A stretch of DNA of 29,117 nt from Sulfurifustaceae bacterium (GTDB taxonomy: Bacteria; Pseudomonadota; Gammaproteobacteria; Acidiferrobacterales; Sulfurifustaceae): NCBI GenBank assembly GCA_041481875.1, contig JBGPCS010000001.1:1-29117 (forward strand), written 5' to 3'. The notes beneath the pieces were generated by a model. That model made no database searches. It saw only the letters and a list, made by a program, of their open reading frames with translations, and was not told the origin of the DNA. Within the stretch, counting starts at the first letter, position 1, and each line of letters opens with the position of its first letter. A program made the translations under genes and the position numbers. Positions 6,787-23,414 of the stretch are shown piece after piece.

Positions 6787-8670
6787 TCAGTCCTCCAAGT
6801 ACGTATACCCTTCGAGCCCCGCGGCTAGTTCTTCGAGGAAGCTATTGCGGCGCCGCTCGTCCAGATTGTGTGCCTGGCGCACTTTCTCCCGGTACGCCTG
6901 ACGCAAATCTTCCGGATCAAAGTGCACGTACCGCAGGACGGCGTCGACCGTGTCGCCGCGATGCGGCTCGACCAGCCGATGGCCGCCGTCGGGCAGAACC
7001 TCCACGTGGACCGAATCGGTGTCACCGAAGAGATTGTGCATGTCACCCAGAATTTCCTGATACGCGCCGACGAGAAAGATGCCGAGCAAGTACGGTTCGT
7101 TTTCTCGCGGCGCGTGTAGCGGCAAGGTGGAGTCGATCCCGTCGGCGTTGACGTACCAGTCCATGCGCCCGTCCGAATCGCAGGTGATGTCTTGTAACAC
7201 CGTGCGGCGCGTCGGCGCTTCGTCGAGTCGACTCAACGGTACTACCGGGAAGATCTGGTCGATCGCCCAGTGATCGGGCATCGACTGAAACAGCGAAAAA
7301 TTGCAGAAATACTTGTCGGCAAGTTTGTCGTTCAACTCATCCAGAATTTCCCGATGTGCTTTGGCGGACGGCTCGAGCAGCTCGTGCACTTTCCAGCAGG
7401 TAGCGAAATAGATCTGCTCGGCACGAGCGCGCTCCGCGAGCGAAAGCACGCCGTGATTGAACATGCCTTGGGCCTGCGAGAGATAGTAGGCGGCGTCGTG
7501 GTGCGCCTCGATCGCAGAGCGATTGGAGATGTTCACGTAGGACTTGTACATGTCCCGTATCAACGGCTGCTCCCCGGCTCGCACCGGCGGCAACTTTCCC
7601 GCACCGGGCGCTTGCTCGCGCTCGACGACGTTGGTGATCAGCACCGCATGGTGCGCCGTCAGCGCGCGTCCCGATTCGCTGACGATGTCGGGATGCGGCA
7701 GGTTTTTCTCCTCGCAGATCTCGGCTAGCGCGTAAACGATGTTGTTCGCGTATTCGCGTACCGAATAGTTGGTCGAGCAGAAGCTGCGCGAGCGCGTGCC
7801 TTCGTAGTCGACGCCCAGGCCGCCGCCGACATTCACGGTATCGATGTCCGCCCCGACCGCCCGCAACTCCGCGTAGTAACGCGCCGCCTCGCGCATGCCG
7901 GACTGGATGTGCTGCACATTGGCGATCTGCGAACCCATGTGAAAATGAATCATCTTGAGCGACCCGAGCGCGTCGGCCTCGCGGAGCCGCTCGCAAGCGC
8001 GCAACGCCTCGGAGGCGGTAACACCGAATTTCGACTTGTCGCCGCCGGTGTTTTGCCATTTGCCCGCGCCGATCGAGGCGAGACGCACGCGCAAGCCGAG
8101 CAGCGGCGCGATATCCAGGCTCTTCGACTCGCGCAGCACGAGCTCGAGCTCGGAGAGCTTCTCGATGACGATGTGCACGCGATGACCGAGCGCCTGGCCG
8201 ATCAACGCTAGACGCGCGTACTCGCGATCCTTGTAGCCGTTGCAAACAATGACGCCGTTCGGGCGCGAACGCGCGAGCACGGCGAGCAACTCCGGCTTGG
8301 AACCCGCTTCGAGCCCGAACCTATCGCCGCCGTGCTCGAGGAGCGCGTCGACGACGCTGCGCTGCTGGTTGACTTTGATGGGATACACCGCCGTGTAGCG
8401 TCCGCGAAATCCGCGTTCGGCGGACGCCGCATCGAACGCTTCGCACAACTCCCGTACGCGATGGTGCAAGATGCCCGAGAATCGCACCAGCACCGGCAGC
8501 GTCAACTTGCACGCACTGAACTCGCGGGTCAGTTCGTACAGATCGACAGCGTGCGCCGAGCTCGGGTCCGGTCGGGCTGTCACGTGCCCACGCTCATTGA
8601 CATCGAAATAGCCGTTGCCCCAGTGCGCGATGTTATAGAGGTCGCGTGCCTTGCTAGTGCTCCAGCTCAT
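6787..8670 (-). CDS. speA: Biosynthetic arginine decarboxylase (PLP-dependent)
   Basis: VYPIKVNQ (PLP lysine), GLEAGSKPEL, HFHMGSQI, ESGRALTAHH, DITCDSDG and GAYQEILGDMHNLFG motifs. Confidence 0.97.
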   Translation of the reverse strand: MSWSTSKARDLYNIAHWGNGYFDVNERGHVTARPDPSSAHAVDLYELTREFSACKLTLPVLVRFSGILHHRVRELCEAFDAASAERGFRGRYTAVYPIKVNQQRSVVDALLEHGGDRFGLEAGSKPELLAVLARSRPNGVIVCNGYKDREYARLALIGQALGHRVHIVIEKLSELELVLRESKSLDIAPLLGLRVRLASIGAGKWQNTGGDKSKFGVTASEALRACERLREADALGSLKMIHFHMGSQIANVQHIQSGMREAARYYAELRAVGADIDTVNVGGGLGVDYEGTRSRSFCSTNYSVREYANNIVYALAEICEEKNLPHPDIVSESGRALTAHHAVLITNVVEREQAPGAGKLPPVRAGEQPLIRDMYKSYVNISNRSAIEAHHDAAYYLSQAQGMFNHGVLSLAERARAEQIYFATCWKVHELLEPSAKAHREILDELNDKLADKYFCNFSLFQSMPDHWAIDQIFPVVPLSRLDEAPTRRTVLQDITCDSDGRMDWYVNADGIDSTLPLHAPRENEPYLLGIFLVGAYQEILGDMHNLFGDTDSVHVEVLPDGGHRLVEPHRGDTVDAVLRYVHFDPEDLRQAYREKVRQAHNLDERRRNSFLEELAAGLEGYTYLED

Positions 8671-8800
8671 GGATGAACGTGGACTTTGAAGGGGACCGAA
8701 TTATGGAGTAATCGCAACGAGAAGAAAACGAAGCCGCGACCTTTTGCTTCCTCCGGCGGTTCGGTATCGTGACGACTTTATTCGATCCGAGAAAGAAAAA

Positions 8801-9652
8801 ATGGCGCTCGATCACACGTGGTACACCGAGCAATGGGCGGAGCAGGGTGCGGCGATCTCGCTCAAGGTTCGAGAGAAGGTGCACGAGGAGCAGTCGCCGT
8901 ATCAGCGCATCGAGATATACGAGACGGAAGCTTTCGGCACGCTGATGACGCTCGATGGGCTCGTCATGGTCACCGACCGCGACAATTTCATTTACCACGA
9001 AATGATGTCGCATCCGGCGCTATTCGCGCACCCGAACCCGCGCCGTGTGCTGATTATCGGCGGCGGCGACTGCGGTACGCTGCGGGAGGTGCTCAAACAC
9101 CCGACCGTGGAGCGCGCCGAGCAGGTCGAGCTGGATGAGCGAGTCACGCGCGTTTCCGAGAAATTCTTTCCCGAGCTATGTGCTTCCAATGGCGACGCGC
9201 GCGCGCGTTTACACTTCGCGGACGGAATCGAGTGGGTAGCGCGTGCGGCAACCGGCTCTTACGACGTGATCATCATCGATTCCACCGATCCGGTCGGACC
9301 GGCGGCAGGGCTGTTCTCCGAGTCGTTCTATCGCAATTGTTTGCACGCGCTCGGGAAGAACGGCGTGGTTGCCGGGCAAAGCGAGTCACCGCTTTTCCAC
9401 GCGGAATTGATCCGCTCGGTACAGCGAGCGCTCCGTTCCGCCGGCTTTCGAGACGTCATAACGCTCAATTTCCCGCAATGCACCTATCCGTCGGGCTGGT
9501 GGAGCGCCACGCTCGCGTGCAAGGACGGCACGCTGTCTTCGGTCCGCGAGAGCGACGTCGCGACGCAGAAGATTCCCACCCGCTATTACAGCCGTGCGAT
9601 CGGCGCCGCCGCGCGCGTGGCGCCGCAGTTTCTCGAAGACCTCTTGCGCTAG
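8801..9652 (+). CDS. speE: Polyamine aminopropyltransferase (spermidine synthase family)
   Basis: QSPYQRIEI, YHEMMSHPAL, IIGGGDCGTLREV and IIDSTDPVGPA motifs. ATG 8801 preferred over TTG 8744 because it gives a typical family length (283 aa). Confidence 0.95.
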   Translation: MALDHTWYTEQWAEQGAAISLKVREKVHEEQSPYQRIEIYETEAFGTLMTLDGLVMVTDRDNFIYHEMMSHPALFAHPNPRRVLIIGGGDCGTLREVLKHPTVERAEQVELDERVTRVSEKFFPELCASNGDARARLHFADGIEWVARAATGSYDVIIIDSTDPVGPAAGLFSESFYRNCLHALGKNGVVAGQSESPLFHAELIRSVQRALRSAGFRDVITLNFPQCTYPSGWWSATLACKDGTLSSVRESDVATQKIPTRYYSRAIGAAARVAPQFLEDLLR

Positions 9653-9871: not shown

Positions 9872-11311
9872 TCAATAGTTGTAGGCCTTCTCACCGTGTT
9901 CGGAGACATCGAGGCCTTCGCGCTCCGCTTCCTCGCTCGTGCGCAGACCAATGGTCCAGTCGAGCACCTTGAACAGTACAAATGCGACGACACCCGACCA
10001 GATGAGCGAGACACTGACTGCCCAGAGCTGACTGATCAGTTGCGCCTTCATGTCGAACGCCGCTACCACGTTCTTCTCGTAGTCGAAAATGCCGGTGCCG
10101 CCGAGCGCCGGACTGACGAACACGCCCGTCAACATCGCACCGATAATGCCGCCGATGCAGTGAATGCCGAAAGCGTCGAGTGCGTCGTCATACCCGAACT
10201 TGCTCTTGAGCCAACTGACCGCCCAGAAGCAGATCACGCCCGCGGCGATGCCGATGACGAGCGCGCCAAGAACACCGACGTAGCCGGATGCCGGCGTGAT
10301 GGCGACCAAACCCGCCACCGCGCCCGAAGCCGCACCCAACATCGACGGCTTACCTTTGAGCAGCCACTCGACGAACATCCACGCGAGCGCCGCTACCATG
10401 GTCGCGAACATCGTATTGACCAGCGCGACCACCGCGCCGCCCGCGGCCTCGAGGTTGGAGCCGGCGTTGAACCCGAACCAACCGGTCCACAGCAAGCACG
10501 CGCCAATCATCGTGAGCGGCAGGTTGTGCGGCGGCATAGCGGTCTTGCCGTATCCCAACCGCTTACCGAGCACGACCGCCCCCATCAGCCCCGCAATGCC
10601 GGAGTTGATGTGCACGACGGTGCCGCCCGCGAAGTCGATCGCGCCTTTGCCAAACAGGAAACCCGCAGGATCCCCATAGGCCGAGGGACCGCCCCAGAAC
10701 CACACCATATGCGCGATCGGCGCGTACGAGAACGTGAACCACAGCGCCGAGAATATGAGCACCGCCGAGAACTTGATGCGCTCGGCATACGCCCCCGCGA
10801 TAAGGCAAGTCGTAATCGCCGCGAACGTCATCTGGAACATCACGAACACCAACTCCGGTATCGCGACACCCTTGGTAAACGTCTCGGCCATCGTGTCCGG
10901 CGTCAGCCCTTTCAGAAATACCTTGTCGAATCCGCCGACGAAACTGTTGAGCGACCCTCCCGCCGAGAACGCGAGGCTGTAGCCGTACAACACCCAGATC
11001 ACGCCTATCAAGCAGAACACGGCGAACACGTGCATCAGCGTGGACAAGATGTTTTTCGTGCGCACCAGACCGCCATAGAAGAGCGCGAGGCCCGGCACGG
11101 TCATCAGCAGCACGAGGATGGTCGATGTCATCATCCAAGTGGTGTCGCCCTTGTCGACCTTCATTGCCGGCGCCGCGGGCGCGGCGGCGGCGGGCGCGGC
11201 GGCGGCAGGAGCAGCCGGTTGATCCGCGGCCGAACCGACGCTCGGCAGCCACGTGAGTACGCCGCCGAACAAGATCGCCGCGATTAGCAGCTTTGAAATT
11301 AGTGTTCTCAT
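9872..11311 (-). CDS. amtB: Ammonium transporter, Amt family
   Basis: DFAGGTVVHINSG and DAFGIH (twin His), WFGFNAGS and PPHNLP motifs. Signal peptide and Ala/Pro-rich linker. GGGGGA RBS before ATG 11311. Confidence 0.98.
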   Translation of the reverse strand: MRTLISKLLIAAILFGGVLTWLPSVGSAADQPAAPAAAAPAAAAPAAPAMKVDKGDTTWMMTSTILVLLMTVPGLALFYGGLVRTKNILSTLMHVFAVFCLIGVIWVLYGYSLAFSAGGSLNSFVGGFDKVFLKGLTPDTMAETFTKGVAIPELVFVMFQMTFAAITTCLIAGAYAERIKFSAVLIFSALWFTFSYAPIAHMVWFWGGPSAYGDPAGFLFGKGAIDFAGGTVVHINSGIAGLMGAVVLGKRLGYGKTAMPPHNLPLTMIGACLLWTGWFGFNAGSNLEAAGGAVVALVNTMFATMVAALAWMFVEWLLKGKPSMLGAASGAVAGLVAITPASGYVGVLGALVIGIAAGVICFWAVSWLKSKFGYDDALDAFGIHCIGGIIGAMLTGVFVSPALGGTGIFDYEKNVVAAFDMKAQLISQLWAVSVSLIWSGVVAFVLFKVLDWTIGLRTSEEAEREGLDVSEHGEKAYNY

Positions 11312-11324
11312 TAGTTGATTCCCC

Positions 11325-11717
<393 letters not shown>

Positions 11718-12842
11718 CTAAAACTTGTAAACCGCCTCGACGCCGAGTGAGCTTTGGTCCTTTTTGAGATTTCCGTCCTCTGAGAAAACAACCTTGTCGG
11801 ACTTGTCCGAACGTATCTCAAAACGCAGCTCGGCGTTCTTCGCGATTCCATACCCAACGGTAAGGGTCGTTTCCTTCAGCTTCTGCGTTGTACCGGTCCG
11901 GAACCCTTGCTTGTCGTCGAACGACTCCAGGCGCGCGGACAACCGCCAGTCGTCGTTGATCTTGTAGTTGACATAGCCGGCCGTCCCCTTCCACTTCGCT
12001 TTGCCGGCGGCAACGGCCTTGTCCTGCGAGCCGTCGTCATAGTTGAGCACGAAGCTCACGGCATCCGTTAAGTTGTAGGTCACGACGAGATCCAGAAGGC
12101 TGCGCGTACCGATCTGCGCTCCGACTTCGTTGCCCGAATAAAGCGTCGCCGATACGCTAAGCGGCTTGATCGGCGTCGCCGCCACACCCAACTCGATAGT
12201 CTTCCCGACCGCGCACGAGGTGCCGATGCAGTTGCCAGGCGCTGGCGTGGTTGCGTTCTCATTGAGAATGTTCCAGCCATTATTCAAACCGGCCATGAAC
12301 TTCAGTTCATCGCTAACGGTGAAGTTTGCGCGCACGCCGGTGTGGGTCACCGGTTCGGCAAACGTAAACAGAAACGAGCGCGAGAAGTTGGTGTTGTTAA
12401 CTGCCTGCGCTACTTCTGCACCAGCAAGCGTCGTGAACTTCCCGGCCATTACGCTGAGCGCACCTGAGCTGTATTGCATGAAGACCTGAAGCGGGTCGAC
12501 ATTGGTCCCAGCCGTTTGACCAACGGGAGAGTTGGCGCTTACATCCTTACCGAACTGCAATTCTAACAACCCGCCGAAGCCCTTCGCCGGCAATGACGAA
12601 ATCGAAACGTCGAGCGCGTGAAGATTAAAACTGCGTTGCTCGGTATCGTAGTTATGGAAGGTTGCAGTATTCGGATCCGTCGACTTGCTCTGATACGACA
12701 CATCGATGTAACCACTGACGTCGATACCCGACGCCTTAAGCACGTCTGCCAAGGCCGGAACTTTGTCTGCCGCGCCGGCTGCGGAGCAAACGCAAGCCAT
12801 CACGGCCCCCGCCAGCAGCTTCTTGCTTTTGAAATGATTCAT
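11718..12842 (-). CDS. Outer-membrane beta-barrel protein (putative porin, beta-barrel porin-2/OmpL-like)
   Basis: Sec signal peptide, alternating beta-strand pattern (VSGYIDVSY, GKFTTLAGAEV, FAEPVTHTGVR, RLSARLESFDD) and C-terminal Phe (VYKF). GGAG RBS before ATG 12842. Confidence 0.88.
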   Translation of the reverse strand: MNHFKSKKLLAGAVMACVCSAAGAADKVPALADVLKASGIDVSGYIDVSYQSKSTDPNTATFHNYDTEQRSFNLHALDVSISSLPAKGFGGLLELQFGKDVSANSPVGQTAGTNVDPLQVFMQYSSGALSVMAGKFTTLAGAEVAQAVNNTNFSRSFLFTFAEPVTHTGVRANFTVSDELKFMAGLNNGWNILNENATTPAPGNCIGTSCAVGKTIELGVAATPIKPLSVSATLYSGNEVGAQIGTRSLLDLVVTYNLTDAVSFVLNYDDGSQDKAVAAGKAKWKGTAGYVNYKINDDWRLSARLESFDDKQGFRTGTTQKLKETTLTVGYGIAKNAELRFEIRSDKSDKVVFSEDGNLKKDQSSLGVEAVYKF

Positions 12843-12956
12843 GTCAGTCTCCAAATCGGTTGTTGATGCGAGCGGCCGTGAGGCCGATTTGTTCTAGGAA
12901 CTTCGCGCGACAACCTTGTCGCAAACACGCTGGTCCATCAGTGCGCACCCCCAAGG

Positions 12957-12972
12957 AGCAGTTTCTATGCCA
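12957..12972 (-). promoter_or_regulatory. Sigma54 (-24/-12) promoter of porin-glnK-amtB
   Basis: Minus strand TGGCATAGAAACTGCT has exact GG-N10-GC spacing and is close to the TGGCAC-N5-TTGCW consensus. Confidence 0.8.
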
Positions 12973-13035
12973 CAGAGTATTTGCACGTGAAAACAGAATA
13001 TTAGTAGCGGATGAAATGGGAACGACGAGGCGTCT

Positions 13036-13084
13036 TGCACCAAGATGGAATGGAGGGGACGGCTCCGCGCACCAATTCCATACG
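13036..13084. promoter_or_regulatory. Tandem NtrC-type enhancer half-sites
   Basis: TGCACCAAGATGG (13036) and CGCACCAATT (13068) are 32 bp apart, 65-110 bp upstream of the sigma54 promoter, with an AT-rich stretch between. Only one half of each site matches TGCACCA-N3-TGGTGCA well. Confidence 0.55.
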
Positions 13085-13124
13085 GGCAAGCGTGGACGCT
13101 CTTTAGCCAACTCCGGCGGGGAAA

Positions 13125-16100
13125 TTATCCAGAGTCAGCCAATACCAGCACCACCAGATTCTGCGCAACCGAAACCGGAGTGCCCTCGCGACAAAGCACT
13201 TGGTAAACATAACCGTCGCACGGCGCGACTACGTCGATTTCCATTTTCATCGATTCGATGACAGCGAGTCTGGCGCCCGCCTTAACCGTCTCTCCTTCCC
13301 GGACAGCGAGCCTCCACAAGCTTCCCGCCACCTGCGCGAGCACCGGGCGGGCGCCGGGTGGCAATGCGGCTTCGCTTTGCGATGGCAATGTCGCCGCGCA
13401 CGTCTCGCCCCTATTCGCAGCGCTATCCGAAGATGCCCAACGCTCGCGTTCGGCCTCGAACGCGAGCTGCTGCCGATTCTTGAACTCGGCGATGTCTTTG
13501 GCGCTCGCTTGCAGGAACCGGTTGTAGTCGCCCAAATGAAATGCCTGTTCCTCAACCCGTAACCGATAGCGACCGAGCGGAAAGTCGACTCGGATCTGAA
13601 GCAACTCGTCCTCGGTGACCGGAAAGAATCGAATCTGGTCGAAGCAGCGAAGCAGCCACGGTTTGCCGGGGTGAAACTCGGCGGTGGTGCGATACCGATT
13701 CCACATCTGCAGCGTGCGCCCGACGAACTGATAGCCGCCCGGACCCTCCATGCCGTACACGCAGAGGTACGCGCCGCCGATACCGACGGCATTCTCGGGT
13801 GTCCAAGTGCGCGCGGGGTTGTACTTGGTGGTGACCAAACGATGTCGCGGATCGATCGGCGTCGCGACCGGAGCGCCCAGATAGACGTCGCCAAGCCCGA
13901 GCACCAGGTAGCTCGCGCCAAAGACGATCTCCTGTACCTGCTCGGTCGAATCAAGTCCGTTGATGCGGCGGATGAACTCGATGTTACTGGGGCACCATGG
14001 CGCGTCACCGCGTACCGACTGAGTGTACTTCTCGATCGCGAGCCGTGTTTGCGAATCGTTCCAGGCGAGCGGCAGATGGAGAACGCGTGAAGCCACCTCC
14101 ATGTCCACGACGGCGGGTAGTCGCCCTTCTAATTCAACCAGCGTCCGTTGCAGCCGCGATGCCGGTAGCGCACGGCTGTCATAGTGAACTTGCAGCGAGC
14201 GGACGCCGGGTGTCAGCTCCACGATGCCGGGCATGCGCAGTGTGTCGAGCGCCTGCATCAGCGCGTGAACGCGTAGACGCAGATTGAGATCGAGCACAAG
14301 CGGGCCGTACTCGATCAGCAAGTACTCGTCCCCCGAGCGGCGGTAGGTTACTTCGACCCCCGACAGCGGCACCAAGCGCTCAATGACGGCGGGCGGCAAC
14401 GGTGCGTGCGGGAATCGCATCGGTGACGGGGTTTCTTCGAGCGTTTCGACTTGCCGTTCCAGCGTCCGCGCGAGGAGCGCCGCTTCGTCTGTCGTGATCG
14501 ATCGAAACCGCACGGTGTCGCCGGGCTTCAGTTGGCCGAGCTTCCACAACTCCGCCTTAACGACGACCGCCGGACACACGAACCCCCCGAGACTCGGACC
14601 GTCCGGACCGAGAATCACCGGCATGTCGCCGGTGAAGTCGATCGCCCCGATCGCGTAAGCATTGTCGTGGATGTTCGATGGATGCAGGCCGGCTTCGCCG
14701 CCATCGGAGCGCGCCCACTGAGGCTTCGGGCCGATCAAGCGGATACCGGTGCGGCTGGAGTTGTAGTGCACCTCCCAATTCGTCGCGAAGAACGTCTCGA
14801 TATCGCGATCGGTGAAGAAATCGGGCGCGCCGTGAGGTCCGTACAGAACGCCGATCTCCCAGTGCGGGCGGTAAGTCGGGATCAGCGCTGGATGCAGCGC
14901 CGCCTGCCTGACCGACGACGTTGGACGCAGATGCAGTACATCGCCGACGCGCAGCGGGCGGCCGGCATGGCCGCCGAACTGGCCGAGCGTAAACGTGGAG
15001 CCGCTGCCGAGATAGCGCGGCACGTCGAATCCACCGGCGACGGCGAGATAAGTGCGCATCCCTGACCCGCGAAGGCCGCGAAAACGCAGAGTCGCTCCCG
15101 CCGTCACGAGATGCGTGCGCCAATTTTCGACGGGCTCGCCATCGAGCTCGGCCTGCATGTCAGCGCCGGCAAATACGATGCTGGCGTCTACGTTGAACTT
15201 GAGCATCGGACCGCAAACCGTCATTTCCAAACCAGGCGAGTCGGGAGAATTGTCGAGCAGCCGGTTGGCGAGCCGGAAGGCGAACGCATCCATCGGCCCG
15301 GACGGTGGTACGCCGATCTGCCAATAGCCGAGCCGCCCAGGCCAATCCTGCACGGTCGTTTGCACGCCCGCCTCGAGCACGTCGATGGTGGTCGGCCGAT
15401 AACGAAAGGTGCTGAGGTAGCCGGTGGTTTGCCGACCCTCGCGGAAAACACCGTCGGCAAGAACCTGCCGCAGGTAATCGACGTTGGTTTCGATTCCGCA
15501 AATGCGTGTGCGCACCAACGCTTGCTCGATGCCGACGATGGCGTCGGCGCGGGTCGCAGCGTGCACGATCACCTTCGCAAGCAGCGGATCGTAGTACGGA
15601 GGTATCTCGGTGCCGCACTCGATCCACGTGTCGACGCGAACATCGTCGGGGAATGTCGCCTCCGTCACCGTGCCGGCGCTCGGCTGGAAATTCTTCGCGG
15701 GATTCTCCGCGTATAGCCGCGTTTGGATTGAGGCGCCGCGCGCCGCGACAGCGACGCCGGCGAGCGACAACTCACCGGCCGCTTGCCGCACCATCCACTC
15801 GACCAGGTCGACGCCGGTGACCGCTTCCGTTACACCGTGCTCGACCTGCAGGCGCGTGTTCACTTCGAGAAAATAGAACTCCGCGCCGGCGACGTCGTAT
15901 ACGAACTCCACCGTACCCGCCGACTGATAGCCGACCGCGTTTGCCAATCTCACCGCGGTGGCGTGCAGACGCTCGCGTTGATCGTCGCTCAGGCCCGGCG
16001 CCGGAGTCTCTTCGATCACCTTCTGATTGCGCCGTTGCATGGAACAGTCGCGCTCGCCGAGCGCGATCACGTGGCCCTTGCCGTCGCCAAAAATCTGCAC

Positions 16101-16727
16101 CTCAACGTGGCGCGCCTGCTCGACGTACTTCTCGAGATAAATCCCCGCGTCTTTGAAATTTGCCGACGCCGAACGCCGCACCGATGCGAATGCTTCTTGC
16201 AACTCGTCGACGTTTTGACATAGTCGCATGCCGATGTCCCCACCGCCTGCGGTGCTCTTGAGCATGATTGGATAGCCGATGCGATTCGCTTCCGCTTGCG
16301 CGTGGCTATCGTCGATGAGCAATCCCGAACCCGGCAGCAGCGGAACCTCGTTGGCGCGCGCCAGCTCGCGTGCCGTATGTTTCAAACCGAAGGCGCGCAT
16401 TTGCGAAGGAAGCGGACCGATGAACACGATTCCCGCGCTTGCGCACGCCGCGGCAAAGTCCGCGTTCTCGCTCAGGAACCCGTAGCCCGGATGAATCGCC
16501 TGCGCGCCGGTTTGCTTAGCGGCGGCGAGAATTTTTTCCGCCGACAGATAGCTTTGGGCGGCCGACGAAGGACCGAGGCACAGCGCCTCGTCGGCGAGAC
16601 TCACGTGACGCGCCGCAACGTCCGCCTCGGAATACACCGCGACGCTCGCGACGCCCATTTTCTTCAGCGTGCGGATGATGCGACAGGCGATCGCACCGCG
16701 GTTGGCAATCAGGACTTTGGTGAACAT
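13125..16727 (-). CDS. uca: Urea/guanidine carboxylase (biotin carboxylase + carboxyltransferase + BCCP), 1200 aa
   Basis: BC motifs [37 protein letters not shown] and [12 protein letters not shown] motifs [26 protein letters not shown] and [10 protein letters not shown]. Biotin site ESMKMEI. Confidence 0.97.
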
Positions 16728-16743
16728 CGCTCCGCCGCCACGT

Positions 16744-16791
16744 GCCGGGTCGTCCCGGCGTTGTCAGGAGCGGCGCGCGGGTCGTCCCGCG
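16744..16791 (-). ncRNA. Guanidine-II (mini-ykkC) riboswitch
   Basis: Minus strand has two GC-rich hairpins with ACGA tetraloops, CGCGGG-ACGA-CCCGCG and GCCGGG-ACGA-CCCGGC, joined by a 16-nt linker. It ends 16 nt before the carboxylase ATG, next to a GGAG RBS. Confidence 0.9.
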
Positions 16792-16807
16792 GCCGAGCGT
16801 GGCTACG

Positions 16808-17464
16808 TCAACCCCAAACCAGCAGCCGTATCGGCGTCGGGTTGTAGGCGTTGCATGGATTGTTGAGCTGCGGGCAATTGGAGATGAGCACGAGTACGTC
16901 CATCTCGGCGCGCATCTCGACATACTTGCCCGGTGCCGAGACGCCGTCCTCGAACGTGAGCCCGCCCGCGGCGGTCACCGGCACGTTCATGAAGAAGTTG
17001 ATGTTGGCGGGAATGTCGCGCTTGGTGAGCCCATACGGCCGACCCCAGCGCGCGAGCGCGCTGAGAAAATTATCGCGGCAACTGTGCAGGTACTTCTTGT
17101 CGAGCGCATAGCGCACGGTGTTGCTTTCGGCGGAGCACGCGCCGCCGAGCGTATCGTGCCGGCCGCAGGTATCGGCGACGATGCGCAGCATGGTGTTGCC
17201 GGCGCCGGAAAGAAGCGACGATCCGGTGGTGAGGTAAATATTTCCTTGCCCGCGGATCGTGTCCAGCGCGCTGTAACGCTCGGCCGAGTCGCGCGCATTG
17301 TAGAACAGCGTATCGACCGCCTGGTTGCCCTCGAGATCGACGATGCGAAACGTCTGGCCCTGCTTCACCTCGTGCATCCACGGCTCGCCGGCGGGCAAAG
17401 TGAAATCGTACGCGGCATTGCCCGGCATCAGGCGGCTCTGCGCGATCTTTGTCGCGCTCGTCAT
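16808..17464 (-). CDS. cgdB: DUF1989 urea-carboxylase-associated protein, probable carboxyguanidine deiminase subunit B
   Basis: [47 protein letters not shown] and [11 protein letters not shown] motifs. ATG overlaps the upstream stop (ATGA). A/B naming is inferred from operon order. Confidence 0.9.
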
Positions 17465-18189
17465 CCGCCGAACAACGCCTCGGTATTGCGAAAGCCGCGG
17501 ACGTTCTCGGGCCGAAAATTGCGGCAATAGTCGTCGGCGCCGGGCGGTTCCGCGCGCCATGCGCACAGCCGCACGCTACCCGGCGCGTACTGCGGTTTGG
17601 GGTCGAGCGGATGCGGTGCGGTCGAAAGCGCGACGAGCGTATTCATCTCGAAACGCAGATCGACGTAGTCGCCGCGTTTCGAGTTATCCGGCACGAATTT
17701 CATGCGCCCGCTTTCATCTATCGCCACTTTGCCGAAAAAATTGACGTTCGCGACCAGATCGCGCTCACCCAACCCCCATTTGCCGAGCTCGATCAATAGG
17801 CCGTCGCGGGCACTACGAGCCATGTCGTTGCGGTGCTCCTGAAAAGTTTTCGCGCCGTACCTGGCGCTAGTCTCGGCGTTCGTCGAGATGCCGCCGATCG
17901 GATCGTGCCAACCGACGGTGTCGGCGACCACTGAGCACAGTACGCGGCCCATGTCGGAGTAACAGACGAAGCCGCGCGTCAGATGCGCCGTGTGCTGCGC
18001 TTTGAGGGTATCGGCCATGTTGTAGCGTTCGAGCTTCTCGTCGTCGTTGTAGAAGAGCGCGGCAACATTCGCGCCGCCGTCGGCGTCGATCAGACGTAGC
18101 GCTTGACCGCGCTTCAGCACGCCGGACCAATGACAACCACCGGGAATTAGCTCTTCCCAAAGCGGCCGATCGACACCCGCGTTGGACAT
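17461..18189 (-). CDS. cgdA: DUF1989 urea-carboxylase-associated protein, probable carboxyguanidine deiminase subunit A
   Basis: [41 protein letters not shown] and STAPHPLDP motifs. AAGGAG RBS before ATG 18189. A/B naming is inferred from operon order. Confidence 0.9.
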
Positions 18190-18226
18190 CAATAGCGACT
18201 CCTTCTCGTTTCTCGGCGCACGCTTT

Positions 18227-18242
18227 AGCAACTCGCGTACCA
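18227..18242 (-). promoter_or_regulatory. Sigma54 promoter of cgdA-cgdB-uca
   Basis: Minus strand TGGTACGCGAGTTGCT (GG-N10-GC). Predicted start is about 27 nt before the cgdA ATG. Confidence 0.78.
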
Positions 18243-18295
18243 GCTACGTCTTACCCGCACGGGTGTGAGGATAAGAGGATTGATCCGCGCGAGCA

Positions 18296-18343
18296 CGCAC
18301 AACCGCTGTGCGTGCGAACTCTAGACCGCGCTGCCGTGGTGCG
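18296..18343. promoter_or_regulatory. Pair of NtrC-type enhancer sites between divergent sigma54 promoters
   Basis: CGCAC-aaccgct-GTGCG (18296-18312; GCAC-N7-GTGC) and CGCGC-tgccgtg-GTGCG (18327-18343) are 31 bp apart. Confidence 0.62.
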
Positions 18344-18438
18344 AAAGGTCGGGTACGCGTGTTTTCGGCGGCTGCAGGCGTCGCGGTGAATGACCGGATT
18401 CCCAGGGGCCGCGCGCATTGCGCGCGCCGGCCGGCTCG

Positions 18439-18454
18439 CGGCACAGAGATTGCT
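18439..18454 (+). promoter_or_regulatory. Sigma54 promoter of the ABC importer-atzF operon
   Basis: CGGCACAGAGATTGCT (GG-N10-GC, near consensus). Predicted +1 at about 18465, just before the riboswitch. Confidence 0.82.
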
Positions 18455-18470
18455 GAGTGCACGGTGGATA

Positions 18471-18580
18471 GAGCATCTAGGGTTCCGGCCGCGCGGTGGT
18501 GGTGTTCCGATCGGTGTCTGGTCCGAGAGATGCAGTCCGGCGCGTCGCCGGATACACGGCGGGACAAAAGCCCGGGAGAC
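18471..18580 (+). ncRNA. Guanidine-I (ykkC-yxkD subtype 1) riboswitch
   Basis: CTAGGGTTCCG...TGGTCCGAGAG with P1 GCATCT/AGATGC, P2 TCCGGC/GCCGGA, and 3' ACACGGCGGGACAAAAGCCCGGGAG, which matches the guanidine-binding P3 consensus. Confidence 0.95.
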
Positions 18581-18685
18581 CCAAGTGGAGGATTCGGCAT
18601 CCACGTTTGCGGCGCTCTCCTTACAGCGCTCGTCCCGTGTCCCGACTCCTCTCGACGATAAAATCACTCAATCACGAGGTGTGTC

Positions 18686-19765
18686 ATGCGAGGTTTCGTC
18701 AATAGGCTTGCCGGCGCCGCGGCGCTGTTCGCCCTCACCGGTCTGCTACTCCAGTCCAGCGCAGTCGCCGCGCCAAAAAAGGAATTCAAAGTCGCGTGGA
18801 CCATTTACGTCGGCTGGGTGCCGTATGACTACATGGTGCAATCCGGAATTTTGAAAAAGTGGGCGGACAAGTACGGCATCAAAATCGACATGGTGCAAGT
18901 GAACGACTATGTCGAGTCGATCAACCAATATACCGCCGGCAAGTTCGATGCGTGTTCCATCACCAATATGGACGCGCTCACGATCCCCGCGGCGGGCGGC
19001 GTCGACACCACCTCGCTGATCATCGGCGACTTCTCCAACGGTAACGACGGCATCGTGCTCAAAGGTAAGAGTAAGAAGCTCGCCGACATCAAAGGCCAGA
19101 AGGTGAATCTGGTCGAACTGTCGGTGTCGCACTATCTGCTCGCGCGGGGTCTGGAGTCGGTGAAGATTCCGGAGAAAAACATCAAAGTCGTCAATACCTC
19201 CGACGCCGATATCGTCGCCGCGTACAAAACGCCGGGGGTGACCGCGGTCGTGCCGTGGAATCCGCAACTTTCCGAGATCAAGAACATGGGCGACGGCACG
19301 CTGGTATTCGACTCGAGCAAAATCCCGGGCGAAATCATCGACATCATGTTCGTCAACACGCAAACGCTGAAGGACAATCCGGCGTTCGGTAAGGCACTGG
19401 TCGGTGCGTGGTACGAAACCATCGCGCTCATGGCGAAGGACGACGCCGCCGGCAAAGCGGCGCGCGAATCGATGGCCAAAGCCTCCGGCACCGACTTGGC
19501 CGGCTTCGACAGTCAGCTCAAGACCACGCGCATGTTCTACAAGCCCGCGGAAGCGGTGGCGTTCACCAAGAGCGCGGATCTGATGAAGACCATGGACTAC
19601 GTGCGCAAGTTCTCCTTCGAGCACGAGCTGCTCGGCAAAGGCGCGAAGAGTCCGAACGTCGTCGGTATCGGCTTTCCGGGCGGCAAGACGCTCGGCGACC
19701 CGAAGAACGTGAAGTTGCGCTTCGACTCGACGTACATGGAGATGGCTGCCGCCGGTAGCTTGTGA
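18686..19765 (+). CDS. ABC transporter substrate-binding protein (urea-carboxylase-associated type; probable guanidine binding)
   Basis: Signal peptide. AWTIYVGWVP, YVESINQYTAG, DFSNGNDG, SVSHYLLAR and IPGEIID motifs. Downstream of the guanidine-I riboswitch, with a GAGG RBS. Confidence 0.92.
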   Translation: MRGFVNRLAGAAALFALTGLLLQSSAVAAPKKEFKVAWTIYVGWVPYDYMVQSGILKKWADKYGIKIDMVQVNDYVESINQYTAGKFDACSITNMDALTIPAAGGVDTTSLIIGDFSNGNDGIVLKGKSKKLADIKGQKVNLVELSVSHYLLARGLESVKIPEKNIKVVNTSDADIVAAYKTPGVTAVVPWNPQLSEIKNMGDGTLVFDSSKIPGEIIDIMFVNTQTLKDNPAFGKALVGAWYETIALMAKDDAAGKAARESMAKASGTDLAGFDSQLKTTRMFYKPAEAVAFTKSADLMKTMDYVRKFSFEHELLGKGAKSPNVVGIGFPGGKTLGDPKNVKLRFDSTYMEMAAAGSL

Positions 19766-19768
19766 CGC

Positions 19769-20584
19769 GTGCGCCTCATCAACCGTCGGCCCGGCAAAGG
19801 GGCGGCGCTGTTTTTGGCGGCGCTGCCGTTCTTGTTGCTGTTCGCCGTTTACATCGGCGCGTCGGCGGCGCGTTTGGCGGAGAATTCGGAAGATAAGTTA
19901 CTACCCTCGCTCGCGACCATCGGCGCAACGATCAAGCAATACGCGATCGACACCGACACACGCACCGGCGAGATACTTCTGTGGGCCGATACGCGGGCGA
20001 GCTTGATTCGGTTCGGCGCCGGATTGATGCTCGCCGCGGCGTTGGGACTCGTCGTCGGCGTCGCCAAGGGCGTCGTCCCGTACGTACGCATGACGCTCGA
20101 ATCGTTCATCGCCGCCGTCGCGCTCATCCCGCCGCTCGCGGTGCTGCCGATTCTCTTCATCGTCTTCGGCCTCGGCGAAGTCTCCAAGGTCGTCCTCATC
20201 GTCGTCGGCATCGCTCCGCTGCTGATGCGCGATCTGGCGTTGCGCGTCCGCGATATTCCGCGCGAAGAGATCATCAAGGCGCAAACGCTCGGCGCGAATT
20301 CCTGGACGCTGACGCTGCGGGTCGTGTTGCCGCAGATTCTTCCGCGCCTGCTCGACTCGGTGCGCTTGCAGCTCTGCAGCGCTTGGCTGTTTCTGATCGC
20401 GGCGGAAGCGATCGCCGCGGAAAACGGCCTCGGCTATCGCGTGTTTCTCATGCGGCGATATCTGGCGATGGACGTGATACTCCCTTACGTGTTCTGGATC
20501 ACGCTGCTCGCCTTCGCCACCGACTGGCTATTGCGCCGCGCGACGCGCGTGCTCTATCCGTGGTACGCGCCGACACCGTCGTGA
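19769..20584 (+). CDS. ABC transporter permease (NitT/TauT type)
   Basis: Several TM segments, IPPLAVLPILFI, EAA-like loop (KAQTLGA), WLFLIAAEAIA and GLGYRVFL. GTG start. Confidence 0.93.
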   Translation: MRLINRRPGKGAALFLAALPFLLLFAVYIGASAARLAENSEDKLLPSLATIGATIKQYAIDTDTRTGEILLWADTRASLIRFGAGLMLAAALGLVVGVAKGVVPYVRMTLESFIAAVALIPPLAVLPILFIVFGLGEVSKVVLIVVGIAPLLMRDLALRVRDIPREEIIKAQTLGANSWTLTLRVVLPQILPRLLDSVRLQLCSAWLFLIAAEAIAAENGLGYRVFLMRRYLAMDVILPYVFWITLLAFATDWLLRRATRVLYPWYAPTPS

Positions 20585-21465
20585 CGACGCTCTCGGTTCG
20601 CCGGCTATGGAAGGAGTACGACGGGCACGTCGTGCTCGAGAACGTCAATCTCGAGGTGAAGGACAACGAGTTCATCACCGTCGTCGGCGCTTCGGGCTGC
20701 GGCAAGACGACGTTTCTGCGGATGCTCCTGGGCGAGGAGCGCTCGACCCAGGGGACATTTCTCATGGACGGCCGGCCGTTGCCCGATGAACCGGGACCGG
20801 ATCGTGGCGTCGTGTTTCAACACTATTCCGTATTTCCGCATCTCACGGTGTTGCAAAACGTACTGCTCGGGCTGGAGCTCGCCGCCGCACCGCGCCTGGG
20901 GAAACTCTACGGCGCGCCGCGGCGACGGGCGCTCACGCAAGTCGAACAGATGTTGCATACGGTCGGCCTGCACGAAGCGCGCAGCAAGTACCCGCATATG
21001 CTCTCCGGCGGCATGCAGCAGCGCCTCTCGATCGCACAATCGGTGATCACGAACCCAAAAATTCTCCTGCTTGATGAACCGTTCGCCGCGCTCGATCCGG
21101 GCTTGTCGGCGGACATGCACGAGCTAATCCTGCGGCTCTGGGAAGAACACAAGATGAACATCTTCATGGTCACGCACGATCTCAAGGAAGGCTTCGAGCT
21201 CGGCACGCGTTTGCTGGTGTTCGACAAGGTGCGCCTCGATCCGCAAGCGCCGGAGCGTTTCGGCGCGACGATCACCTACGATATTCCTCTCGGTGGCGCT
21301 GGCAAGAAACTATTGAAGGAGGTGTCCGCCACCACCGCGCGCACCGGAGAGTTTGCGCAGAAAGTGGCGGACAACGTCAACGTGACGGCGGTGCGTCCGC
21401 GCGTGGAGGCGGGAAATTCCCGCGTTGCTTCCGCGCGCAATGAACTAGTGGACGATAACGTTTGA
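20581..21465 (+). CDS. ABC transporter ATP-binding protein
   Basis: GTG start overlaps the permease stop (GTGA). Walker A GASGCGKT, signature LSGGMQQR, Walker B LLLDEPF and H-loop VTHD. Confidence 0.94.
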   Translation: MTTLSVRRLWKEYDGHVVLENVNLEVKDNEFITVVGASGCGKTTFLRMLLGEERSTQGTFLMDGRPLPDEPGPDRGVVFQHYSVFPHLTVLQNVLLGLELAAAPRLGKLYGAPRRRALTQVEQMLHTVGLHEARSKYPHMLSGGMQQRLSIAQSVITNPKILLLDEPFAALDPGLSADMHELILRLWEEHKMNIFMVTHDLKEGFELGTRLLVFDKVRLDPQAPERFGATITYDIPLGGAGKKLLKEVSATTARTGEFAQKVADNVNVTAVRPRVEAGNSRVASARNELVDDNV

Positions 21466-21553
21466 ACGCCGGCACACTCGCTACACGGCCGCGTGGCGCG
21501 ACCGGTAGGCGTGCGGCATTTCTCGCGCACGGACGTGGAGGCTGAGCGAAACG

Positions 21554-23374
21554 ATGGTCGGATGGACGATTTCGGAATGGATCGCGGCGTACGCGGACGG
21601 TGCTACGCCGGAAGATCTGCTGACCGCACCGGTGGCGACGCCGCCACCGGACGACGTTGCGTGGATCAGCCGCGCACCGCTGGATCTATGGCGGCGCCAA
21701 TTCTCGGACTTGAGAGAAAAACGCGCCGCGGTCGGCGGTGACTTGACGAAGCTGCCGCTTTACGGCGTTCCGTTCGCGCTCAAAGATAACATCGATGTCG
21801 CCGGATGGGCGACGACCGCCGCCTGCCCGGCGTTTTCGTACATGCCGGCGCGCACCGCGACGGTGGCGCAGCGCTTGATCGATGCCGGCGCGATCCTAGT
21901 CGGTAAGACCAACCTCGATCAATTCGCAACCGGCCTGGTCGGCGTGCGTTCGCCCTACGGCGCGGTACCCAACGCCTTCGATCCCCGCTACATCTGCGGT
22001 GGTTCCAGCTCCGGCTCCGCCTCCGTGGTCGCGCGCGGCATCGTGCCGTTCGCGCTGGGAACCGACACCGCGGGTTCCGGCCGAGTGCCGGCGGGTTTCA
22101 ACAATATCGTCGGGCTGAAACCGACACGCGGCGCGCTGAGCGCCGCCGGCGTCGTCCCCGCGTGCAAGACGCTCGATTGCGTTTCCATTTTTTCCGCCAC
22201 GGTCGCGGATACGCGCACGGTTTACGCGGTCGCGGCCGGCTTCGACTCGGCGGATGCGTACTCGCGACCGGCGCCGCTCGATACCACGTCGAAGCGGCTG
22301 CCCGAGCGGCCTCGTTTCGGCGTGCCGCGCGAGCCCGAGTGGTTCGGCGATCGCCGAGCGGAAATGTGCTATCGCGACGCGCTGGCGACGCTCGCCACGC
22401 TCGGCGTTGAATGCGTGCCGATCGATTTTTCGCCGCTGCACGAGATCGCGGCGTTGTTGTACCAAGGGCCATGGGTCGCCGAGCGTTATGCCGCGATCGA
22501 ATCGTTCGTCGTGCAGAACGCCGCCGCCATGCACCCGGTGGTTAGGGAAATCATCTTGGGCGCGGCGAAGTTTTCGGCAGCGGACGCCTTCAAGGCGATG
22601 TATCGCCTCGCCGAGCTCAAACGAGTGGCGGACGCACTGCTCGCCGAGGTCGACGCGCTCGCGGTTCCGACCGCGCCGACAATTTATCAAATCGCCGAGG
22701 TCGAGGCCGATCCGATTCGCCTGAACAACCGCCTCGGCACCTACACCAACTTCGTGAACTTGCTCGATTGGAGCGCGCTGGCGCTGCCGGCCGGCTTTCG
22801 CGACGACGGCCTTCCGTTCGGCATCACGCTGATCGCGCCCGCGTGGCACGAGCTCGCGCTGGGTGAATTCGGCGAACGCTGGCAAGCGCGTCTCGCGCTG
22901 CCGCTGGGCGCTACGGGGCGCGCGTTCGCGGCGAAGCCGCCGGCGCGCACCGCGGGACCGCCGCCCACCGCGACGACGGTAAGGCTCGCCGTAGTGGGAG
23001 CGCATCTAACCGGCATGCCGCTCAATCGTGAGTTGACCGAGCGCAACGCGATATTCATCGAGCGCACGAGCACTTCCGGCGCGTACCGACTGTACGCACT
23101 CGGCGGAACAGTGCCGCCGAAACCCGGGCTCGTGCGCACGGGAGATGGCGCGCCGATTGAAGTGGAACTGTGGGATCTGCCGCTCGAAACTTTCGGGTCC
23201 TTTGTCGCCGCGGTGAGCGCTCCGCTCGGCATCGGCACGCTCGAGCTGGCCGACGGGCGTCGGGTGAAGGGCTTCGTTTGCGAATCGTGGGCGATCGGGC
23301 AGGCGACCGACATCACGGTCTTCGGCGGGTGGCGCGCGTACGTCGCGGCCGATCGCAACCGGACGCCGAATTGA
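21554..23374 (+). CDS. atzF: Allophanate hydrolase (amidase signature family)
   Basis: FALKDNID (catalytic Lys), GKTNLDQFATGL, GGSSSGS and GTDTAGSGRVPA (Ser-cisSer). C-terminal domain AVVGAHLTGMPLN...FGGWRAY. Confidence 0.96.
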   Translation: MVGWTISEWIAAYADGATPEDLLTAPVATPPPDDVAWISRAPLDLWRRQFSDLREKRAAVGGDLTKLPLYGVPFALKDNIDVAGWATTAACPAFSYMPARTATVAQRLIDAGAILVGKTNLDQFATGLVGVRSPYGAVPNAFDPRYICGGSSSGSASVVARGIVPFALGTDTAGSGRVPAGFNNIVGLKPTRGALSAAGVVPACKTLDCVSIFSATVADTRTVYAVAAGFDSADAYSRPAPLDTTSKRLPERPRFGVPREPEWFGDRRAEMCYRDALATLATLGVECVPIDFSPLHEIAALLYQGPWVAERYAAIESFVVQNAAAMHPVVREIILGAAKFSAADAFKAMYRLAELKRVADALLAEVDALAVPTAPTIYQIAEVEADPIRLNNRLGTYTNFVNLLDWSALALPAGFRDDGLPFGITLIAPAWHELALGEFGERWQARLALPLGATGRAFAAKPPARTAGPPPTATTVRLAVVGAHLTGMPLNRELTERNAIFIERTSTSGAYRLYALGGTVPPKPGLVRTGDGAPIEVELWDLPLETFGSFVAAVSAPLGIGTLELADGRRVKGFVCESWAIGQATDITVFGGWRAYVAADRNRTPN

Positions 23375-23414
23375 CTCTTGCGGCCCGGGGTTTACCGCCG
23401 TTCAAGACACGGCA

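Follow-up and report, generated by a model that had tools for sequence, protein, structure and literature searches.

Operons for carboxylase-dependent guanidine use are known to carry guanidine riboswitches. In Raoultella terrigena, Klebsiella michiganensis, and Erwinia rhapontici, a guanidine-I riboswitch goes with the importer and CgdAB genes and a guanidine-II riboswitch goes with the carboxylase and allophanate hydrolase genes (Sinn et al. 2021, as summarised in passages of PMC12186494). The gca operon of Vreelandella boliviensis is headed by guanidine-I and contains an internal guanidine-II, according to passages of PMC12508155. In Burkholderia cenocepacia H111, the NtrC regulon under nitrogen limitation includes the genes for a carboxylase (BCAS0272, 6-fold down), its ABC binding protein (BCAS0269), and a Cgd protein (BCAS0271), all of which lose expression in an ntrC mutant under this condition (PMC5491218). 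The gdmH/gimABC genes of Synechocystis combine NtcA-activated promoters with guanidine-I, and their AND logic has been shown experimentally (PMC12704784). Here we describe a guanidine-assimilation module at positions 13125-23374 of a 29,117-nt stretch of DNA (hereafter the window) from a Sulfurifustaceae bacterium, contig JBGPCS010000001.1.

As judged from its sequence and from homologous loci, the module is probably a cassette that was inserted horizontally, encodes the known guanidine carboxylase pathway, and stands under sigma54/NtrC and two-riboswitch control. The main design is known, and only details of the wiring are new. Four enzyme genes and the associated ATP-binding cassette (ABC) importer are present, and all their reading frames are intact. 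The features of the module are as follows.

13125-16727, minus strand: guanidine carboxylase (annotated as "urea" carboxylase), 1200 amino acids, of biotin carboxylase-carboxyltransferase type (TIGR02712, 1860 bits, and the full Pfam domain set)
16745-16793, minus strand: guanidine-II (mini-ykkC) riboswitch, two hairpins, both with ACGA loops (RF01068, 40.7 bits, cut-off 32)
16808-17464, minus strand: cgdB (UAAP2, DUF1989), carboxyguanidine deiminase subunit (TIGR03424, 347 bits)
17461-18189, minus strand: cgdA (UAAP1, DUF1989), carboxyguanidine deiminase subunit (TIGR03425, 359 bits)
18227-18242, minus strand: sigma54-type -24/-12 box TGGTACgcgagTTGCt for cgdA-cgdB-carboxylase, score 19.5 of 21, with a predicted start at about 18216 and a leader of about 27 nt
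18297-18311 and 18328-18342, no strand assigned: NtrC-type sites GCACaaccgctGTGC and GCGCtgccgtgGTGC with a GCAC-N7-GTGC core, 31 bp apart, between the two promoters
18439-18454, plus strand: sigma54-type -24/-12 box cGGCACagagaTTGCt, score 19.5 of 21, with transcription predicted to start at about 18465, on the first base of the aptamer
18466-18580, plus strand: guanidine-I (ykkC, subtype 1) aptamer (RF00442, 83.3 bits, cut-off 63, model positions 1-107)
18686-19765, plus strand: ABC substrate-binding protein of the carboxylase-associated (guanidine) importer (TIGR03427, 569 bits)
19769-20584, plus strand: ABC permease (PF00528)
20581-21465, plus strand: ABC ATPase (PF00005)
21554-23374, plus strand: allophanate hydrolase (AtzF type), downstream of the importer genes (TIGR02713, 827 bits)

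An earlier note on this DNA had read the region as a complete guanidine-assimilation module, and this reading is borne out by open reading frames, family scans, and Rfam, which place the carboxylase, CgdA/CgdB, the ABC importer, the allophanate hydrolase, two riboswitches, and two sigma54 boxes at the positions listed here. The riboswitches of the window were called by Rfam cmscan at gathering thresholds and are the sole copies of both families in the source metagenome-assembled genome (MAG; 2.75 Mb, 77% complete). Three start codons were refined by reading the sequence. The cgdA gene starts at ATG 18189, preceded by a GGAG ribosome-binding site. The start of cgdB (ATG 17464) overlaps the cgdA stop codon in an ATGA, and the ATPase start (GTG 20581) overlaps the permease stop codon in a GTGA.

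The proposed route would begin with ABC import of guanidine, followed by its ATP-dependent carboxylation, the deimination of carboxyguanidine to allophanate by CgdAB, and the release of NH3 and CO2 by allophanate hydrolase. The same assignment had been made in the earlier note, and it agrees with the gene families and with a guanidine-type aspartate in the carboxylase. The enzyme aligns with the urea carboxylase of Kluyveromyces lactis (3VA7) across the whole carboxyltransferase domain, and N737 of the yeast enzyme is replaced by an aspartate, so that the substrate block reads GAI-D-FTGD in the window and GAI-N-FTGD in K. lactis. An aspartate occupies this substrate position in 24 of 25 carboxylase homologs from riboswitch-bearing loci. 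In passages of PMC12186494, aspartate is assigned to guanidine carboxylases and asparagine to urea carboxylases, a rule that is stated there without a residue number, and guanidine is named as the preferred substrate of such carboxylases. By our alignment, the variable column in GAI-D-FTGD is probably the specificity position that these passages refer to. The guanidine assignment is secure because the aspartate in the carboxylase coincides with two guanidine-specific riboswitches at the locus. One exception to the rule was seen: a carboxylase with asparagine (GTVNFTGD) is encoded in locus L057 (G311:C63:1-15487) beside a guanidine-I and a weak guanidine-II.

NtrC enhancer sites take the form TGCACC-N5-GGTGCA and lie about 80-160 bp from their promoter. 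In the window, both sigma54-type boxes are held within a divergent intergenic region of 276 bp, together with the NtrC-type pair, of which one site has an exact core and the other a single mismatch. The centers of the two sites lie at about -87 and -118 from one predicted start and at about -161 and -130 from the other. No other Rfam family was found in the cgdA leader and the 18150-18470 intergenic region, even at E ≤ 1.

The sigma54 boxes were scored with consensus weights (maximum 21) against the pattern TGGCAC-N5-TTGCW, with GG at -24, GC at -12, and exact spacing. The bare GG-N10-GC pattern is not enriched across the whole window; therefore, conservation of the boxes was tested instead. 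Two samples of homologous loci were used. Sample 1 comprises 30 loci and was drawn from 400 evenly sampled genomes of the class to which the window belongs; sample 2 comprises 80 named loci from a scan with one genome per species. Their riboswitches were called with Rfam and with two covariance models built from Rfam-level hits. When a score of at least 18 of 21 at most 150 nt upstream of the aptamer was demanded, a sigma54 box preceded guanidine-I at 20 of 24 aptamers in sample 1 (0.56 expected) and at 49 of 52 in sample 2 (1.3 expected), giving 69 of 76 for the pooled samples against about 1.9 expected. The only guanidine-I leaders of the named sample without an upstream box belong to Nitrospira and Nitrosomonas (L125, L128, L146), a pattern consistent with nitrifiers keeping their use of guanidine outside Ntr control. 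A box of the type TGGTAC/TGGCAC-N5-TTGC was also found ahead of cgdA in all eight of the other loci with this divergent layout. The nine divergent intergenic regions, that of the window included, add up to 2820 nt and contain the exact GCAC-N7-GTGC core five times, where 0.23 would be expected (about 22-fold), and one of the loci (L074) has the same 31-bp tandem of NtrC-type sites as the window. This locus, the nearest homolog with the divergent layout, has a long near-perfect hairpin in its divergent intergenic region (L074:4717-4785) with the look of a repetitive extragenic palindromic (REP)-like palindrome; it has no counterpart in the window and yields only sub-threshold matches to microRNA precursors in Rfam. 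As for the regulators, ntrB is present in the window genome, as is the N-terminal half of ntrC (the first 246 residues) at a contig end, and rpoN is found in all four same-genus genomes tested.

The guanidine-II riboswitch lies in the 80-nt gap between cgdB and the carboxylase gene, 14 nt past the cgdB stop codon and 17 nt ahead of the carboxylase ATG. The GGAG ribosome-binding site of the carboxylase is found at 16730-16733, 11 nt after the end of the second hairpin, and the linker between the hairpins contains a GCUCC, the complement of GGAGC in the ribosome-binding region. In an alignment of 13 orthologous copies, 92% of the cells in the stems pair, compared with 68% in shuffles. Changes on both sides are seen in 9 of the 13 pairs, the observed covariation score was reached by none of 500 shuffles, and the fold has a z of -2.5. 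The GCUCC stretch may act as an anti-Shine-Dalgarno element next to the ribosome-binding site, and the switch would open the carboxylase start only when guanidine bridges both ACGA loops.

The guanidine-I aptamer sits in a leader that begins at the predicted transcript start and lies 105 nt ahead of the binding-protein gene. Its tail, GGGAGA, is able to pair with a downstream UCUCCU (by eye), a pairing also seen on the importer side in the leaders of Burkholderia-type loci. In loci with one-directional operons, a clear terminator pairs with the 3′ tail of the aptamer, whereas the leader in the window has no U-tract terminator.

Taken together, these elements would form a layered switch, whose responses we infer from established knowledge of sigma54/NtrC and of both riboswitch classes. 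Nitrogen limitation would switch on both divergent sigma54 promoters from a shared enhancer; both transcripts are expected to start only under this condition because the two promoters share the central NtrC-type pair. Since the rightward transcript begins at the guanidine-I aptamer, productive expression of the importer and AtzF would additionally need guanidine. On the leftward transcript, nitrogen limitation would suffice for CgdAB synthesis, with no guanidine check, as the leader of about 27 nt contains no sensor. The carboxylase that follows would again be gated by guanidine through guanidine-II. This AND logic had been proposed in the earlier note. The layout that it calls for is in place, with sigma54/NtrC elements at both operons, guanidine-I before importer and atzF, guanidine-II before the carboxylase, and a sensor-less cgdA leader; the gating itself is a prediction drawn from sequence.

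The note had also considered the wiring unusual. This did not hold when the co-occurrence of riboswitches and sigma54 boxes was followed across homologous loci, where the main features recur widely. The combination of guanidine-I with an internal guanidine-II is published and is the commonest in the samples, a sigma54 box before guanidine-I is near-universal, and NtrC dependence is published for Burkholderia. Guanidine-II was found in the cgdB-carboxylase gap of 19 of the 30 loci of the class sample, 12 of them above the Rfam cut-off, and of 44 of the 80 named loci. Both riboswitch classes occur in one locus in 13 of 27 and in at least 29 of 80 cases, with many of the other loci cut by contig ends. 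The commonest layout is one-directional and runs from a sigma54 box through guanidine-I, the importer, cgdA, cgdB, and guanidine-II to the carboxylase and atzF. Burkholderia and Paraburkholderia loci have divergent operons with guanidine-I on each side.

The uncommon features are only the divergent variant and the position of atzF. The layout of the window, which is divergent with guanidine-I on the importer side only, a bare sigma54 box before cgdA, and guanidine-II before the carboxylase, was found in 8 of about 107 other loci (L040, L042, L074 from a Chromatiales MAG, L114 from a Steroidobacteraceae MAG, and L086, L098, L138, and L151 from Pseudomonadota/Proteobacteria MAGs). As in the window, the importer of these loci stands behind a sigma54 box and guanidine-I, and on the opposite side a sigma54 box is followed by cgdA, cgdB, guanidine-II, and the carboxylase. 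The gap between promoter and aptamer measures 7-13 nt in all nine divergent loci including the window. The -24 element of the cgdA promoter is of TGGTAC type in L074, L098, L114, and L138, TGGTAT in L151, and TGGCAT or TGGCAC in L040, L042, and L086. The unusual TGGTAC element shared by the first four suggests a single origin of the divergent variant. The CgdA proteins of the eight loci are only 57-67% identical to CgdA of the window. The eight loci differ from the window in atzF, which follows the carboxylase where visible (L042, L098, L114, L151), and none has atzF after the ATPase. Among the about 107 other loci, atzF after the importer ATPase was seen in none, and the gene follows the carboxylase wherever it was found. 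The closest relative of the window CgdA (67%) is encoded in L073 of Proteobacteria bacterium UBA3588, in the order permease-ATPase-cgdA-cgdB-carboxylase. Neither covariance model gave a guanidine-I or guanidine-II match in this 10.7-kb locus, where a guanidine-I leader may lie past the fetched flank.

The insertion was recognised by comparison with genomes of the same genus, and the features of the site are as follows.

13081-23412, no strand assigned: insertion of about 10.3 kb relative to two same-genus genomes, from alignment of the flanks
9872-12972, minus strand: native neighbor operon, with sigma54 box TGGCATagaaaCTGC at 12958-12972
11718-12842, minus strand: porin (PF07642) of the neighbor operon
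11325-11663, minus strand: glnK of the neighbor operon
9872 to about 11300, minus strand: amtB of the neighbor operon

CgdA was not found in the seven other same-genus genomes searched. The distance between the porin gene and yifB is 0.77-0.86 kb on one contig in two of these congeners (G005, G001) and 10.9 kb in the window. Alignment of the flanks with G005 holds up to about 13080 and resumes at about 23413. From this spacing and the flank alignment, the module is an insertion of about 10.3 kb that lies about 110 bp upstream of a native Ntr-type promoter, between the porin gene and a small gene upstream of yifB. The sigma54 box of the porin operon is identical in sequence in G005. The ends of the insertion show no boundary repeats, no mobile-element signatures, and no integrase, and no shift in base composition was seen across the insert. 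The earlier note had treated porin-glnK-amtB as joined to the module by design; the comparison with G005 and G001 instead traces the adjacency to insertion of a cassette beside a native operon. The carboxylase is not followed by a terminator-like site on its strand, so that read-through into the porin operon is possible. Several further observations concern this site. Two TTGGTGC half-site-like repeats at 13030-13080 on the minus strand, upstream of the porin sigma54 box and partly conserved in G005, may serve the porin-glnK-amtB operon as its native enhancer; the cassette was inserted just beyond these repeats. An arginine decarboxylase gene (speA) and a spermidine synthase gene (speE) follow at 6787-9652, just past amtB; thus, several nitrogen and polyamine genes cluster at the insertion site. 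Guanidine genes are also adjoined by glnK-amtB in L045, L052, L058, and L076.

Several findings weigh against an active module under NtrC and two-riboswitch control. One of them concerns a single codon of the carboxylase.

16236-16238, minus strand: carboxylase codon 164, GAC (Asp), within the glycine-rich ATP loop, from the homolog alignment

In all 22 homologs in which the motif was found, the ATP loop reads KSTAGGGGIGM. Through Gly164Asp, the carboxylase of the window departs from this canonical glycine-rich sequence of the biotin carboxylase domain. The loop is otherwise invariant, and the aspartate could impair the enzyme. Concerning the promoters, the second NtrC-type site has its core mismatch, the exact core was not found in four of the nine divergent loci, rpoN was not found in the assembled 77% of the window genome (TIGR02395, PF04552), and no RNA run contains the locus. 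Concerning guanidine-I, the segment after the aptamer (18581-18685) shows no canonical intrinsic terminator and no clear Shine-Dalgarno-sequestering helix, and its fold is not significant (z = 0.49), so that the gating of importer and atzF by this aptamer is assumed from the behavior of its family. Finally, atzF might have a promoter of its own because the 88-nt gap between ATPase and atzF (21466-21553) contains a weak sigma54-like box, cGGCATttctcGCGCa, with a score of 16 about 25 nt before the atzF start, which was not counted among the boxes above.

Three other explanations were weighed against the preferred one. The module could be inactive or decaying in this organism through the Gly164Asp exchange, with the regulatory wiring left as a relic. 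The uniqueness of the aspartate among the 22 homologs speaks for this, as does its position within the conserved GGGG loop of biotin carboxylases. Every reading frame of the module is intact, however, and near-identical contigs of two public sediment metagenome runs have C at 16237 and read GGC (Gly) at codon 164, though at a depth of only about 4. Since the public contigs over the codon read GGC, Asp164 could reflect a rare allele or an error of assembly, and we regard decay as unlikely. One of these contigs, 320 nt long, differs from the window in only two bases. A second GAC (Asp) codon lies at position 174 (16206-16208), 30 nt from codon 164; the 320-nt contig reads GGC (Gly) at both codons, and the contig of the second run reads GGC at 164.

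The sigma54 promoters could also be real and be driven by an enhancer-binding protein other than NtrC, such as a dedicated activator, in which case the first input would be something other than general nitrogen status. At least five sigma54-dependent activators, full-length or nearly so, are encoded in the genome; like the missing exact cores in four of the nine divergent loci, they would suit such a control. The cassette itself is without an activator gene, though, and the enrichment of NtrC-type cores, their classic 31-bp tandem spacing, and the NtrC dependence of the homologous B. cenocepacia genes (PMC5491218) all favor NtrC, which makes another activator improbable. That the module breaks down urea by the classic urea amidolyase route instead of guanidine is suggested by the NCBIfam names of the carboxylase, UAAP1/UAAP2, and the binding protein, which are urea-related. 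It is nevertheless highly improbable in view of the two guanidine-specific riboswitch classes that control the locus, the aspartate where urea carboxylase has asparagine, and the preference for guanidine given in passages of PMC12186494. The preferred explanation therefore remains an inserted guanidine carboxylase cassette under sigma54/NtrC and two-riboswitch control.

A more far-reaching idea can be put forward only tentatively, and we consider it rather doubtful. In the divergent variant of the window and eight further genomes, CgdAB would respond to nitrogen limitation only and the carboxylase alone to guanidine, with CgdAB either pre-loaded or serving a second substrate; separately, the pairing of sigma54 with a guanidine-I leader would be a general proteobacterial design rule. 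If this is true, pre-loaded CgdAB could keep labile carboxyguanidine from accumulating, or CgdAB could have a second, guanidine-independent substrate. A statement of the sigma54/guanidine-I pairing as a general proteobacterial rule was not found in the searched literature, and neither was a paper joining guanidine riboswitches or ykkC with NtrC, sigma54, or RpoN.

The locus thus offers a clear natural example of what would be a two-input switch, nitrogen starvation AND guanidine, assembled from a sigma54 promoter and riboswitches, with a predicted third checkpoint within the operon, at the step that consumes ATP. By the comparative counts, proteobacterial guanidine carboxylase loci normally couple sigma54 with a riboswitch. 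As a natural experiment, the divergent variant and the displaced atzF could show where in the pathway ligand gating is needed, and the insertion shows a cassette moving as a unit. None of these findings overturns the current understanding.

Compared with the known systems, the window shares its pathway genes with the operons of Raoultella, Klebsiella, Erwinia, and Vreelandella, as far as these are described in the cited passages, as well as guanidine-I before the importer and guanidine-II directly before the carboxylase. Those operons run in one direction with cgdAB behind guanidine-I, whereas the window has divergent operons, no riboswitch before cgdAB, and atzF in the importer operon. Sigma54 promoters are not mentioned for them in these passages of PMC12186494 and PMC12508155.

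The BCAS0269-BCAS0272 cluster of B. cenocepacia H111 ("urea carboxylase" cluster) encodes a homologous binding protein, Cgd protein, and carboxylase. Its genes are treated as urea-related in PMC5491218, where riboswitches are not discussed, and sigma54-riboswitch coupling connects such NtrC transcriptomics, in which the genes carry urea annotations, to the riboswitch literature. The fetched Burkholderia and Paraburkholderia loci resemble the window in having sigma54 boxes on both divergent sides and differ from it by a second guanidine-I before cgdA and by the lack of guanidine-II.

In Synechocystis, gdmH/gimABC use a Ni-dependent guanidinase, NtcA at sigma70-type promoters, and a single riboswitch class, in contrast to the window. 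What both systems have in common is the pairing of a transcription factor for nitrogen limitation with a guanidine riboswitch as two inputs.

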